Notes: generated from the letters alone by a model not told the origin. Shown: positions 53,186 to 64,000, numbered from the stretch's first letter. The stretch is 64,000 nucleotides of DNA from an uncultured Coprococcus sp. (GCA_947632705.1 CANRQE010000006.1:2974-66973); one strand, 5' to 3'. A program made the numbers and translations.

Positions 53186-54601
53186 TTAACCGACTGTTCC
53201 ATACTCATATTCCTGATAACCACCCATGCTCTTTGCCTGTTCCAGCAGGTCTATCACTGTTCCATCCATTGCATTGAGGATAACCAGCTGTCTTGGATAA
53301 GCAGATTCATCCGAATCAACATATTCTTCATACTGGGAGAATACCCATACCGGTATATATTTATAGGAATTTTCTTTTCCTTCATCAACTACCGGATAAT
53401 AACTCAGACGCACATCATTAAAATCAATCTTTTTATAGTTCGTCGGATATTTTTCATAATATGCCGGTATATTTTCATTGGCGGCCTCAAGCATCTCATC
53501 CCAGGTCATCAGATCCACATTTGTTTCTTCCTCTCCCGTAGCAGTATACAGGATTGTCCAATAGGCTTCCAACACTCCATTATCATCCACATATACGGAA
53601 AAGGTTTCAGAAGGCATGTTAATCCATGCATCATCCATATTAAGATTATCGACATTGTAAACCTGTCCCTGATATGCGGGCGTACCATTGATGCCTCTGT
53701 TATAATGTATCACATAACCGTCATATTCCGTCGCAATGTCCTCTCCTGAATTACCATCATAATAATCCCACTCCAGAACATGAGTCTCTGCCTGCACCAT
53801 ATCGGTCACTCCGCACCTGCTCAGGAACTCATCTGCCACGCCGCAGGCTTCCTCCTCCGTCATCTGACAATAATTATTTTCAGTAAAATCTTTTGTGAGA
53901 GGTCCATCATAACAGTATCCGTTGGTTGCACCTTCATATGGCCTGTACTGAAATTCATCCATCGGCATCAGATTTGCCGTCATTCCCGGAGCATCTATTT
54001 CCTCATTCACATATATGCTTACACTGTATTCCCGGCCATCCATCATACCGATAAAATCGCTGCCGGAATAGTCTCCGGCTGCCGGATATTCATCCGGAGC
54101 ATCCTGCAGTTCTTCCTCTAACTGTGCAATATAGGAATCATACCACGGATCTGTATAACCCTGTTCTGCCATGTTGGCCTGATCCTGTTTGATGCTTTCT
54201 ATTTCTGCTTCAATTTCACTTTTAATACGATGCTCATAATCCCGCTCGTAAATCCCCTGTCCTTTATCTAAGAAGGATTCCACCAGCTGCTGCTTATATG
54301 CATTATCAATCTGAATCTGCTCATAATATCCGACAGACATACCGTCAGAACTCGGAATCCCTACCTCATCGTCTGTCAGATTAATACTCTGCAGTCCCGA
54401 CGATCCGGTATTGATACTGACATCACAGGATTCCGGTATTCCAAGTCTTCCTGCAAGACCGCCCTCCGTACTGCTGCCGTTTCCAGATGGGTTGTCTCCC
54501 ATATTGTAATCCACTTCTTTTTTTCCACAGCCCGAGGTCAGCATCAGAACTGACATTGTTCCTGCAAGCATCCATGCCGTTATTTTTTTTCTTGATATCA
54601 T
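53186..54601 (-). CDS. Acidic lipoprotein of unknown function, tandem paralog A
   Basis: Signal peptide ending LTSGC, then GKKEVDY. D/E/Y-rich. C-terminal YIPVWVF...ILNAMDGTVI. Confidence 0.75.
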   Translation of the reverse strand: MISRKKITAWMLAGTMSVLMLTSGCGKKEVDYNMGDNPSGNGSSTEGGLAGRLGIPESCDVSINTGSSGLQSINLTDDEVGIPSSDGMSVGYYEQIQIDNAYKQQLVESFLDKGQGIYERDYEHRIKSEIEAEIESIKQDQANMAEQGYTDPWYDSYIAQLEEELQDAPDEYPAAGDYSGSDFIGMMDGREYSVSIYVNEEIDAPGMTANLMPMDEFQYRPYEGATNGYCYDGPLTKDFTENNYCQMTEEEACGVADEFLSRCGVTDMVQAETHVLEWDYYDGNSGEDIATEYDGYVIHYNRGINGTPAYQGQVYNVDNLNMDDAWINMPSETFSVYVDDNGVLEAYWTILYTATGEEETNVDLMTWDEMLEAANENIPAYYEKYPTNYKKIDFNDVRLSYYPVVDEGKENSYKYIPVWVFSQYEEYVDSDESAYPRQLVILNAMDGTVIDLLEQAKSMGGYQEYEYGTVG

Positions 54602-54665
54602 TTTTCTCTCCCTTTCATTTTACTTTTTCACATTATGTTATTTCACAGGCGTTTGAGCCATAAAA

Positions 54666-56096
54666 TCAACCGGAAACTGTTGATTCAAAATAAACATCAC
54701 TATCATCATATTCTTCATACAATCCCATTTTCTTTGCTTCATCAATCAAATCTATAATGGTTCCGTCCATTGCATTGACAATCAAAAGCTGTGACGGACA
54801 TTTTGACTCATCTGAATCGATCAGCTCCACATATTCTGAAAACACCCACACCGGTATAAATTTATAGGAGTGCCCTTTGTCCTCATCGACAACCGGATAA
54901 TAACTCAGGCGCACATCATTAAATTTAATCTTTTTGAAATTCGACGGATACTTTTCATAATACGCCGCTATGTTTGCATTTACAGCCTCAATCATCTCAT
55001 CCCAGGACATGAGTTCTGCATTCGTTTCCTCTTCTCCGGCGGCTTCAAACAAAGCTGTCCAATATGCCAAAAATACACCGTTGTCATTTACATATATGGA
55101 AAACGTTTCTAACGGCATATTAATCCATGCATCCTCCATGATAAGAAAATCCAAATCGTAGATTTCGGCCTGATATACCGGTGTGTTATTTACTGCTCTG
55201 CTGAATTCTATAAAATAGCCGTCGTATTCCGTTGCCAGCATTTCACTGTAATCCTGATTAAAATACTCCCATTCTACAACGCTGACTGCTGACAGAACCA
55301 TATCCGTAATGCCAAACCGGTTCAAAAAATCTCCCGCTACATCACAGGCCTCTTCCTGCGTAATCTGACAAAGATTATTTTCCGTAAAATCCTCTGCAGA
55401 CGGCCCGTTCACAAAAACAACGTGATCCGCACCTTCATATGGCCTGTATCCGGATACATCCTCCAGTCTCAAGGCGGCAGAAATACCAAAGCCTGCCTCT
55501 CCTTCGTCTATCTCAAACTCGTATTCCCGTCCATCCATCATACCGATAAAGCTGCTTCCCGAATAGTCTCCTGCAGCCGGATATTCATCCGGAGCGGTCT
55601 GTAATTCTGTTTCGAGTTCAGCAATATATTCATCATACCACGAATCTGTATACCCCTGTTCTGCCATGTTGGCCTGATTCTGTTTGACACTTTCTATTTC
55701 TGCCTCAATTTCGCTTTTGATACGATGCTCAGCATCCCGTTCGTATATTCCCTGCTCCTTATCTAAAAAGGTTTCCACCAGCTGCTGCTTATAGGCGTTA
55801 TCAATCTGAAGCTGCTCATAATAACATACGGACATCCCGTCGGTATTCGGGATCTCAATCGCATCATCTGCTGCAGTAATACTCTGAAGCCCTGACGATC
55901 CGGTATCAAAGCTGACATCACAGGATTCCGGTATCCCAAGTCTTCCTGCAAGACCGCCTTCCGTACTGCCTTGTTTGTCTCCCTGATTGTCATTCAGATT
56001 ATAATCTATCTCTTTCTTCCCACAGCCGGAAACAAAGGTGCCCAACAGCATAGCTCCTGTCAGCATCAAGGCAGCTGATCTTTTATCTATCTGCAT
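54666..56096 (-). CDS. Acidic lipoprotein of unknown function, tandem paralog B
   Basis: Lipobox FVSGC-GKKEIDY, highly similar to paralog A. Start moved to 56096, after GAGGT. Confidence 0.75.
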   Translation of the reverse strand: MQIDKRSAALMLTGAMLLGTFVSGCGKKEIDYNLNDNQGDKQGSTEGGLAGRLGIPESCDVSFDTGSSGLQSITAADDAIEIPNTDGMSVCYYEQLQIDNAYKQQLVETFLDKEQGIYERDAEHRIKSEIEAEIESVKQNQANMAEQGYTDSWYDEYIAELETELQTAPDEYPAAGDYSGSSFIGMMDGREYEFEIDEGEAGFGISAALRLEDVSGYRPYEGADHVVFVNGPSAEDFTENNLCQITQEEACDVAGDFLNRFGITDMVLSAVSVVEWEYFNQDYSEMLATEYDGYFIEFSRAVNNTPVYQAEIYDLDFLIMEDAWINMPLETFSIYVNDNGVFLAYWTALFEAAGEEETNAELMSWDEMIEAVNANIAAYYEKYPSNFKKIKFNDVRLSYYPVVDEDKGHSYKFIPVWVFSEYVELIDSDESKCPSQLLIVNAMDGTIIDLIDEAKKMGLYEEYDDSDVYFESTVSG

Positions 56097-62471: not shown

Positions 62472-62485
62472 CTGCCCTCTCCTTT

Positions 62486-64000
62486 CTATTCAGCATCTTC
62501 CCTTGCAAGAATATCCCCCTGTGACAATCCCGACAAAATACATACCGAACGGTCATAATTCGGTCCCAGAGTCACATATTGCTTGACAAGTTCTCCATCT
62601 GTTATCTTCCAGACATAATCAAACTCCTTTCCATCCTCCATTCGCTTTTCGTGATAAACCATATTAGGCGGTATCATCACTACCTGTTTCAGGGAGCTCG
62701 GAGCAAATCTTGCGCTATATCCCTTCGGATCGTCATAAAAGCTCTTATCGTCCACTTCAACATAATATTTAATCAGTCCGTCTGACGCTCCGGTTCTTGT
62801 AACGTAGATCTCACCGTCTTCCAGTGTTGTGATATAGCTTTTCGATGAATCGCCCGACTGTCCGATACATTTACCCGACAGCTTAATGCTGGCATCCGCA
62901 TTATTCGTTAAAACCACACTCTGGTTAATTGCAATCTTTTCCTTATTCTCCTTGACGGTGACTGCCAGTATCATGCTCTCTTCTGCACCGACAGTTGCCA
63001 CCCTGTCTCCGATTGTTGCCTTATAGCCGCTATATGCATCCACATTTTTTACATATCCGTCATTTTCCGCATAAACACTGATATTGCCATAACCGTCGTT
63101 ATTCTTGCTCAGCTCTTCCCTTCTGGCGTTCATACTGCTCATCTGGCTGTTATAATTCAGGGTTGTCAGCTCTTTATTATAAACCAGGATCTGTTTATCA
63201 CAGGTTAACTGTTCCGCCATATACAGTGTATTCTCCTCCGGCTCCCGATCTGTGTCTGCATCTCCGCCTGAGGCAATATCCGGATCCGGTTCAGGAGCTT
63301 TCTCCGGCAGCCGTCCTGTCTTATAGCCTTCAATCTGACTGTCTAACTCCTTCATCTGGTCGTCAAGATCTGCAATACTGCTGTTATAGCTTTCCTTTGC
63401 ATTTGCGATATCAATGTCCAGCTGCTTTAACTCGGCGCTGCCTCCCCCACTGTCAATCACATACAGCAGATCTCCTTTGTTCACCCATTGATCCTTACTG
63501 ATTAAAAATTCCTTAAAATATCCGTCACACGGTGCATAATAGCTGACCATATGCGTATCTTCCATCGTATTTTTGGTATCATCCGAGCTGATAAGCTGCT
63601 CAAAATCCCCTAACGATGCCGTATATTCCGTATAGCTGCTTGGCACAAGAGAATCCGAAAAATAGGAAACCAGTTCCCCTTCCGACAGACCCTCTAATAC
63701 CTGAATATAATTATTATCTCTTTCTCCGATAACAATTTCCCTTTTCTCCATATCATTATTTTCTGTTTTCACATATACGAAGGTCTCGTCCCCTTCCGTA
63801 TACAGAGAATCTTCTCCTATAATCAGAGTATTTGTGATATCGGAAGTGGTAAAGTAAAGAGGAAGCTTGTTTCCAACGGTAAGCAGGCTCTTATCGCCAT
63901 CCTTCAGGCGGAATCTGACATAAGGAAGCGCGGAGGCACTTAAGGCCGCCGCAAGCTCCTCATTGGAATAATTATAAGTCTCAATCTCATACCGTTCCCC
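62486..64000 (-). CDS. Periplasmic-adaptor/membrane-fusion protein, apparently tandem-duplicated; 5' part lies outside the window
   Basis: Manual translation shows the frame open from 64000 through the track's GTG at 63772. Contains lipoyl-like APCDG/AENDG, a coiled-coil hairpin and two MFP C-terminal motifs. Confidence 0.8.
   Translation of the reverse strand, partial: GERYEIETYNYSNEELAAALSASALPYVRFRLKDGDKSLLTVGNKLPLYFTTSDITNTLIIGEDSLYTEGDETFVYVKTENNDMEKREIVIGERDNNYIQVLEGLSEGELVSYFSDSLVPSSYTEYTASLGDFEQLISSDDTKNTMEDTHMVSYYAPCDGYFKEFLISKDQWVNKGDLLYVIDSGGGSAELKQLDIDIANAKESYNSSIADLDDQMKELDSQIEGYKTGRLPEKAPEPDPDIASGGDADTDREPEENTLYMAEQLTCDKQILVYNKELTTLNYNSQMSSMNARREELSKNNDGYGNISVYAENDGYVKNVDAYSGYKATIGDRVATVGAEESMILAVTVKENKEKIAINQSVVLTNNADASIKLSGKCIGQSGDSSKSYITTLEDGEIYVTRTGASDGLIKYYVEVDDKSFYDDPKGYSARFAPSSLKQVVMIPPNMVYHEKRMEDGKEFDYVWKITDGELVKQYVTLGPNYDRSVCILSGLSQGDILAREDAE

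Follow-up and report, generated by a model that had tools for sequence, protein, structure and literature searches.

The closest described relatives of the system treated here are ATP-binding cassette (ABC) machines of type VII, the members of the MacB superfamily. In Escherichia coli, YbbAP(-TesA) (PDB 9GE6, 9GE7 and 9GE8) is an adaptor-less complex with two copies of one ATPase and a periplasmic hydrolase, TesA, as its partner (PMC12646458). Gram-positive bacteria possess MacAB-like pumps, namely YknWXYZ of Bacillus subtilis and Bacillus amyloliquefaciens, Spr0693-0694-0695 of Streptococcus pneumoniae and AS-48EFGH of Enterococcus faecalis, for which a role in keeping peptides off the membrane has been proposed; the adaptors MacA of E. 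coli and SpMacA of S. pneumoniae carry an N-terminal transmembrane (TM) helix (PMC5985334). A third group is formed by the Bce modules, BceAB-BceRS and relatives (PDB 7TCG and 8G3A; PMC9169098, PMC11009047). The adaptor-associated type VII systems named in this literature, MacAB, PvdT, Aat, YknXYZ, AS-48EFGH and SpMacAB, serve expulsion or secretion (PMC5985334, PMC12646458). The locus analyzed here lies in a stretch of 64,000 nucleotides (the window, C6:2974-66973) from the 56-contig, 1.94 Mb genome of an uncultured Coprococcus sp. It encodes a type VII (MacB-superfamily) ABC system with built-in asymmetry, in which a MacB-superfamily machine is recognisable and a fused permease is accompanied by two different ATPases and by three predicted adaptor modules.

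All genes of the system are on the minus strand. Their order, 5' to 3', is adaptor B (adB), permease, ATPase1, ATPase2 and three lipoproteins of the DUF6034 family, as follows:

62486..64000, minus strand, open at the window edge: adB, a tandem two-module membrane-fusion-protein (MFP)/HlyD-type adaptor lipoprotein (NCBIfam, hhalign)
59658..62471, minus strand: fused type VII permease, 937 aa (Pfam FtsX twice, AlphaFold2, Foldseek)
58980..59654, minus strand: ATPase1, 224 aa, a bare nucleotide-binding domain of the MacB/LolD/DevA type (Pfam ABC_tran 4.5e-33)
57872..58993 (or 59014), minus strand: ATPase2, 366-380 aa according to which start codon is taken (Pfam ABC_tran 4.9e-35; NCBIfam LolD 3e-73)
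56240..57682, minus strand: DUF6034 lipoprotein 1, 480 aa, lipobox LSGC (Pfam PF19499 8.3e-20)
54666..56096, minus strand: DUF6034 lipoprotein 2, 476 aa with the start used in other assemblies, the longest open reading frame (ORF) extending to 56156 (PF19499 2.9e-27)
53186..54601, minus strand: DUF6034 lipoprotein 3, 471 aa (Pfam PF19499 5.3e-30)

The ATPase1 and ATPase2 genes abut or overlap, and ATPase2 is called as 373 aa in other assemblies. The genes are read as an operon because of their spacing and conservation only, since scans of the window for intergenic promoters and terminators gave none that was convincing. Signs of expression were weak: in one metatranscriptome a few low-depth contigs covered adB, the permease, ATPase2 and lipoprotein 2, which was too thin for defining transcripts.

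The permease was recognised by Pfam as FtsX in two stretches. An AlphaFold2 model built from a 69-sequence alignment (predicted local distance difference test, pLDDT, 84.1) displayed ten TM helices in a 4+2+4 layout. The first half comprises TM1, external domain 1 and TM2-4, two linker TM helices follow, and the second half comprises TM7, external domain 2 and TM8-10. Both external domains are of mixed alpha/beta structure in the model and measure approximately 215-235 aa (about residues 57-273 and 560-792). When the model was compared with the PDB by Foldseek, the top match was YbbP of E. coli (9GE6/9GE7; E-value 6e-18, approximately 960-980 aligned columns, 12% identity). BceB was second, followed by MacB, LolE/LolC, Spr0695, YtrF and HrtB. 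From one or the other external domain, the model also matched the isolated external domains of LolE (5UDF, template modelling score (TM-score) 0.65-0.68), MacB (3FTJ) and YknZ (5F9Q), and precomputed annotation places PF12704 (MacB_PCD) on most permease homologues. A search of solved structures by sequence gave only matches at E-values of about 0.01, to PsdB, LolF and LolC, and BLAST between the two permease halves found no similarity. The putative coupling helices differ as well, the TM2-3 one reading EIAMLKSRG and the TM8-9 one RELLFGIYRAMG. The features by which a type VII system is recognised are present: two FtsX-type four-helix units with a large external domain between their first two TM helices, the MacB_PCD (Porter/Sabre) fold and an intact ATPase of the MacB/LolD/FtsE subfamily.

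The two ATPases were found to be 40% identical. Walker A, the signature, the D-E pair of Walker B and the H-loop are intact in both enzymes and in nearly all orthologues (79 for ATPase1, 73 for ATPase2). Among the NCBIfam models, ATPase1 matched DevA best, with YbbA, FtsE and LolD next; the best matches of the two ATPases (LolD, DevA, YbbA, FtsE and MacB) all stayed below the equivalog cut-offs. In a maximum-likelihood tree the orthologues of ATPase1 grouped in a clade of their own (100/100), as did those of ATPase2 (100/99), and these clades were not resolved as sisters among the other MacB-type ATPases of the genome, of which there are about ten. The two enzymes are anciently diverged, with their catalytic motifs intact.

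ATPase2 ends in a C-terminal tail of approximately 46 aa that is strongly conserved among orthologues. Pfam gave no match on the tail encoded in the window, and weak SymE/MazE matches on that of one orthologue. The tails of ATPase2 from other Clostridia families are plainly alignable and share the motif GRLQIPKEY, and two of them scored 36.3 and 25.3 bits against PF04014 (MazE/SpoVT-AbrB; gathering threshold 24.7). Because these two exceed the cut-off, the tail is assigned, through distant orthologues, to the AbrB/MazE type. At the opposite end of the protein, the first 75 codons or so of the 57872-58993 gene are highly acidic and of low complexity. The length of this part varies widely among orthologues, Walker A starting at residue 37 to 133.

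Within the window only the C-terminal 504 aa of adB are encoded. The last 3.5 kb of contig C6, past the window edge, complete adB and add adA and a fourth DUF6034 gene. The full adB ORF is 765 aa long (750 aa as called elsewhere), carries the lipobox LSAC and extends to a window-equivalent position of about 64783. Its module 1 scored 98.3 bits against NCBIfam RND_mfp TIGR01730 (cut-off 94.9) and matched MacA over the full length, while module 2 gave NCBIfam matches of the EmrA/MdtN type. The adA gene, located just upstream of adB and outside the window, encodes a single-module adaptor lipoprotein of 339-348 aa, with weaker adaptor-family matches than adB. The modules were compared by hhalign with profiles made from about 70 orthologues. 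It was observed that adB-N and adB-C are homologous along their whole length (probability 99.4, E-value 1e-21), and that adA matches both adB-N (probability 99.8, E-value 7e-29) and adB-C (probability 99.0, E-value 4e-18). At the profile level there are three full-length homologous adaptor modules (periplasmic adaptor protein, PAP, type), one in adA and one in either half of adB. As single sequences the halves of adB are only 21% identical, which marks the duplication as old.

A different arrangement was found in a locus from another Clostridia family (L114, G190:C2:1719001-1739000), where the adaptor lipoproteins beside a related permease and ATPase pair are three separate proteins of one module each, the first encoded upstream and the other two downstream. 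Such a layout suggests that three modules may be the functional number and that the tandem gene may be a later fusion.

The original prediction had described a type VII system with built-in asymmetry, composed of a tandem-duplicated adaptor, a single-chain permease with two FtsX halves and two large external domains, and two different intact ATPases, one of them with an AbrB-like tail, followed by three variable lipoproteins. The results are in good agreement with this description, the AbrB-like character being established on orthologous tails. The view that every component is doubled had to be given up, since a third adaptor module and a fourth DUF6034 gene lie upstream, so that there are three adaptor modules.

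Neighbourhood conservation was surveyed. More than 1100 permease homologues were retrieved, nearly constant in length at about 940 aa and bearing generic names only. Data with one genome per species contained 206 loci with a permease relative, and the best 80 were analyzed (the close loci). These belong to Coprococcus, Roseburia, Agathobacter, Butyrivibrio and many unnamed Lachnospiraceae. The core order adA (about 340 aa)-adB (about 700-880 aa)-permease-ATPase1-ATPase2 was kept in 80 of 80, as far as the contigs reach and as judged from a crude ORF map; the genes outside this five-gene core vary widely. The ATPases had a median identity of approximately 67% to the proteins of the window, the permease one of 44%, the adaptors 33-40% and DUF6034 24%. 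Such a decrease from inside to outside fits external parts that may face a changing ligand.

The permease is present in 21 of 151 genus representatives of the family and in 44 of 300 Clostridia genomes (about 15%), which represent at least 15 families. When 16 Clostridia loci around more distant permease relatives were compared, L109, L110, L113, L115, L117, L118 and L121 showed one single-module adaptor lipoprotein together with an ATPase1-ATPase2 pair, and L119 was similar. Because the pair recurs beside the permease in these distant loci, paired ATPases are considered to date far back in the family. The Lachnospiraceae form is the one with three adaptor modules, of which two are fused.

Other assemblies of the same organism contain an identical permease with more upstream sequence. 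In those assemblies, three genes are oriented divergently from the operon, for a response regulator (RR, OmpR-type, 217 aa), a histidine kinase with a HAMP domain (HK, 476 aa) and a 274-aa protein with one TM helix. In the assembly under study, the HK and 274-aa genes were located at the broken end of contig C16, after ppx-ppk-infC-rplT, and the run of gene sizes at that position is matched in Coprococcus loci. The HK has two TM helices that flank an external loop of approximately 135 aa. Profile comparison showed no relation between the 274-aa protein and DUF6034 (hhalign probability 7%), and its orthologue in L079 gave no match in Pfam. Of the 54 close loci with full flanks, 21 have a homologous RR-HK pair at a distance of up to 10 kb, and 19 of these 21 also contain DUF6034.

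By reading the intergenic DNA between the regulator and the operon, a direct repeat, TGYAWC-N5-TGYATC, with a spacing of 11 bp was found. Direct repeats spaced by 11 bp are the usual layout of OmpR-family binding sites. In this organism the boxes are at 3276-3292 (+) and 3331-3347 (-) of L098, upstream of the window, and read TGTAAC-N5-TGTATC. In 1.48 Mb of related loci there are 34 strict occurrences of the pattern, where approximately 2 are expected; the 64-kb window has none, the expected number for it being 0.09. The element is present in 33 fetched loci. Promoter windows were defined as the 330 nt upstream of the DUF6034/adA cluster or of the regulator. With one mismatch allowed, the box was found in those of 35 of 56 loci, and its density was 2.0 per kb in promoter windows versus 0.061 per kb elsewhere (about 33-fold). 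Coprococcus loci without a two-component system next to them also have the box, 5' of adA. TGYAWC-N5-TGYATC is proposed as a candidate OmpR-family binding site in the promoters of the operon and of the neighbouring RR.

An 83-aa ORF with a lipobox was detected at L098 3430-3681 (same organism, upstream of the window), between the RR and the first DUF6034 gene. Its N-terminus resembles DUF6034 N-termini, and it is most likely the remnant of a fifth DUF6034 paralogue.

The three DUF6034 proteins of the window scored 71.6, 96.2 and 105.2 bits against PF19499 (gathering threshold 27). The fourth, of 451 aa and encoded upstream of adA outside the window, scored 57.4 bits. Those in the window are 35-67% identical, lipoprotein 1 sharing 35-39% with the downstream pair and lipoproteins 2 and 3 sharing 67% with each other. 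DUF6034 proteins carry lipoboxes, not TM anchors. An AlphaFold2 model of lipoprotein 3 (pLDDT 89.3, 99-sequence alignment) displayed a multi-domain extracellular fold resembling YycI/YycH. At E-values up to 0.001, Foldseek gave only two PDB matches for this model. One was 5COZ, the uncharacterised protein EUBREC_2869 of Eubacterium rectale (E-value 5e-9, probability 1.00), and the other 2O3O, which is YycI, an extracellular regulator of the WalK kinase of B. subtilis (E-value 5e-4, probability 0.99). Searches of solved structures with the sequence and with the 99-sequence profile returned nothing meaningful and detected neither 5COZ nor YycI, and no paper on DUF6034 was found in a literature search of incomplete coverage.

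DUF6034 genes lie within 10 kb of the pump in 43 of the 54 close loci with full flanks, with 1-5 genes in each, mostly upstream of adA. Among the 151 genus representatives, DUF6034 occurs in 24 and the permease in 21, and both occur together in only 5. A clade-specific DUF6034 profile gave solid matches in only 4 of 20 other permease-bearing genera and none in the remaining 16. The association of the lipoproteins with the pump is thus strong in the close loci and loose across genera. In genomes without the permease, DUF6034 adjoins other ABC systems, including split FtsX/MacB_PCD permeases (sometimes with two ATPases) and a system of the ABC-2 type. It directly follows a homologous RR-HK pair in 3 of 8 sampled loci from other genomes (RR 43-46% and HK 31-36% identical). 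The genome under study contains four more DUF6034 genes elsewhere, one of them beside a split FtsX system. DUF6034 as an obligate part or cargo of the pump was rejected because its co-occurrence is high in the close loci and low across genera, as well as for its other ABC neighbours and its RR-HK contexts. It looks like a family of accessory proteins, able to expand and tied to ABC and two-component modules.

Several further DUF6034 loci were recorded. In L083 of the same genome (C7:17000-36000), locus coordinates 6941-18278 hold a second, split FtsX-type ABC system (407 aa, 424 aa and a 222-aa ATPase) and after it a fragment of DUF6034, a transposase of the Mutator family and an intact copy of DUF6034; AgrB-like and GHKL-kinase genes lie upstream. 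One of the DUF6034 copies may have been broken up by the transposase. Another Lachnospiraceae genome contains a tandem array of about 16 DUF6034 paralogues (G021:C50:8006-30076), with mirror-image matches at 45747-67817 of the same contig; the mirrored array reflects a large inverted duplication or else an artefact of the assembly. In L092 and L093, which are without the fused permease, DUF6034 is followed by two proteins of approximately 275-308 aa and two different ABC ATPases. This two-ATPase layout also holds a protein of approximately 515 aa, with weak CARDB/A2M-like matches, and a single FtsX/MacB_PCD permease.

An inducible pump is favoured because the adaptor-coupled relatives expel or secrete their substrates and the operon is apparently under two-component control. 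The system is read as a two-component-controlled expulsion pump for a compound outside the cytoplasm, with the DUF6034 proteins as helpers of the kinase or of the pump and not as cargo. The probability of this reading is estimated at about 0.5. By analogy with the structures of MacB, YbbP and LolCDE, ATPase1 and ATPase2 would form a heterodimer, each docking on one coupling helix (TM2-3 and TM8-9). ATP-driven closure would then set the external domains in motion through mechanotransmission, as MacB and YbbP do (PMC5985334, PMC12646458). The three lipid-anchored adaptor modules could surround the external domains as an outward funnel through the wall-proximal zone, and two copies each of adA and adB would provide six modules, matching the hexameric MacA, YknX and Spr0693. 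The compound, for which an antimicrobial peptide, a bacteriocin or another amphiphile is a likely candidate, would be taken up from the outer leaflet or from the zone of the wall and driven off the membrane. The two-component system would induce the operon. For the kinase, the DUF6034 lipoproteins would be exchangeable co-receptors or modulators; alternatively, they would serve the pump by capturing the compound.

Some observations weigh against the expulsion pump. Six distant Clostridia loci contain the permease and an adaptor without an adjacent ATPase gene. The likeness between DUF6034 and YycI is one of fold only, with TM-scores of 0.23-0.40, and YycI is anchored by a TM helix and not by a lipid; low TM-scores are expected for multi-domain proteins with flexible hinges. 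The repeat pattern was read by eye from a subset of the regions that were later used for counting it. Finally, the heterodimer, the adaptor stoichiometry and the kind of substrate are predictions.

A more elaborate form of the same idea can be entertained tentatively. The locus might encode a fully asymmetric sensory-and-expulsion module made of one permease, one ATPase1, one ATPase2 and a hetero-hexameric adaptor ring with three types of modules. In such a module the DUF6034 paralogues would be interchangeable receptors feeding both pump and kinase, and the AbrB/MazE tail would couple transport to the pairing of pumps or to binding of DNA or a regulator. The tail could pair two pumps because AbrB folds need two chains.

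It is doubtful that the system is mainly a mechanotransducer or sensor, like FtsEX-EnvC or BceAB-BceS, in which the ATP cycle drives or reports changes in DUF6034, the 274-aa protein and the kinase, and the AbrB tail takes part in signalling. Such a role would agree with the YycI-like fold of DUF6034, which is that of a kinase regulator, with the adjacent RR-HK pair and the conserved promoter box, and with the conservation of the ATPase2 tail across Clostridia; in this superfamily, moreover, the partner proteins define the function (PMC12646458). However, three conserved adaptor modules are the hallmark of a conduit, unlike the adaptor-less signalling systems, and the kinase has an external loop of its own, unlike the BceS type. 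Many relatives also possess the core without a two-component system or DUF6034.

A dedicated exporter of a self-made peptide, glycolipid or small protein, comparable to DevBCA, Aat, MacAB-STII or AS-48EFGH, is unlikely. Secretion systems of this kind do occur among adaptor-bearing type VII pumps (PMC5985334, PMC12646458), and DevA is the best NCBIfam match of ATPase1. On the other hand, no biosynthetic, precursor or maturation genes are conserved beside the core in the 80 loci, the neighbours differ widely from locus to locus, and two-component control better suits a response to an external signal.

Still less probable is that the two ATPases do not form one heterodimer, and that they act instead as separate homodimers under different conditions or that one of them serves another transporter. 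The fully canonical motifs would in principle allow either enzyme to homodimerise, some distant permease relatives have no adjacent ATPase genes, and the genome offers about ten further MacB-type ATPases. Against this, the order permease-ATPase1-ATPase2 is kept in all 80 close loci (as far as the contigs reach) and in at least 7 loci from other families of Clostridia, the ATPase genes adjoin or overlap each other, and both ATPase lineages are monophyletic and co-inherited. In addition, the permease halves and their coupling helices differ, with no half-to-half similarity found by BLAST.

The release of the lipoproteins as cargo by a LolCDE-like extractor, which would pull DUF6034 from the membrane and release or relocate it as the original prediction had offered, is highly improbable: the 43 of 54 close relatives with DUF6034 within 10 kb, the best scores of the ATPases against LolD models and the matches of the permease halves to LolC/LolE structures stand against the YycI-like fold, the 16 of 20 other permease-bearing genera without solid DUF6034 matches, the mere 5 genomes with both (24 with DUF6034 and 21 with the permease in 151 genera), the unrelated ABC types and RR-HK pairs that DUF6034 also adjoins, the four further copies in the same genome, a monoderm organism with no outer membrane as target, and the fact that LolCDE uses no adaptors.

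Directly downstream of lipoprotein 3 and outside the pump system, a copper-handling set was observed at 49363-53053; size-matched genes also follow in Coprococcus loci. It consists of:

52526-53053: HD-domain protein
52080-52379: CsoR-type repressor
49363-52056: CopA-type P-type ATPase with HMA domains at the N- and C-terminus

The system is unstudied, widespread and architecturally unusual. It occurs in about 15% of the sampled Clostridia, including many abundant gut Lachnospiraceae such as Coprococcus, Roseburia and Agathobacter. Connected as it is to a two-component system and to YycI-like lipoproteins, it may be the clostridial counterpart of the sense-and-resist modules of the Bce type. 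If true, this would be relevant to the way in which commensals of the gut deal with bacteriocins, peptides of the host or bile. DUF6034 gains a first structural and contextual lead, and the two ATP sites and several adaptor positions provide a natural system for asking how each of them contributes to mechanotransmission.

As to novelty, no characterised member was found in papers or in sequence searches of solved structures, which returned only distant relatives. Likewise, a literature search of incomplete coverage yielded no described type VII system with two different ATPases, no natural tandem adaptor and no YbbP-like system in Clostridia. The claim of an undescribed system holds, as far as the searches reach, for the paired ATPases and the three adaptor modules; the fused permease with two external domains is already known from E. 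coli YbbP.

YbbAP shares with the present system a single-chain permease with 4+2+4 TM helices, two external domains and ATPases of the LolD/YbbA type on separate polypeptides. In contrast to its 2:1 assembly with one ATPase, no adaptor and TesA as partner, the locus described here has two different ATPases (one with the AbrB tail), three adaptor modules, DUF6034 lipoproteins and a monoderm host, and there is no hydrolase gene in the conserved core. With the Gram-positive MacAB-like pumps it has in common a MacB-type permease, a separate ATPase and an HlyD/MacA-type adaptor encoded with the permease in a monoderm. In those pumps the permease is a four-TM homodimer, with a single type of ATPase and one adaptor of a single module, whereas here the permease is fused, the ATPases are paired and the lipoprotein adaptors provide 1+2 modules.

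The Bce modules resemble the system in their fused ten-TM FtsX permease and in the genetic coupling of a type VII ABC transporter to a two-component system in Firmicutes. BceB differs in that its one external domain lies between TM7 and TM8, its ATPase is a homodimer of BceA and an adaptor is lacking, compared with two external domains, two ATPases and three adaptor modules here. BceS-type kinases are described as intramembrane-sensing, unlike the HK found here with its loop of about 135 aa. LolCDE is composed of two separate permease subunits and a LolD homodimer, and works with LolA in diderms. The proteins of the window scored 19 bits against the lolCE model (cut-off 362) and 246 against LolD (cut-off 308), adaptors are present, and the relatives are monoderm Lachnospiraceae.

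The DUF6034 proteins are comparable to the WalK regulators YycH/YycI in their fold and in that their genes often follow an RR-HK pair. Unlike YycH/YycI, whose N-terminal TM anchor contacts the kinase, they are lipid-anchored, show no detectable sequence similarity to them and are linked to ABC systems, in 0-5 copies per locus and up to approximately 16 in one genome. For the adaptors, TriABC-OpmH of Pseudomonas aeruginosa is a precedent of non-identical adaptors that form one functional ring. Covalently linked adaptor dimers can also form such a ring, according to the work on engineered AcrA tandem fusions cited in PMC4446572. Both are resistance-nodulation-division (RND) pumps of diderms, whereas the present case combines a natural tandem fusion with a third module in an ABC pump of a monoderm. 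The matched type VII machines of known structure (MacB, LolCDE, BceAB, HrtBA, YbbAP and YtrEF) are described as having two copies of one ATPase, and the adaptor-coupled ones use one adaptor type. The present family breaks both rules.

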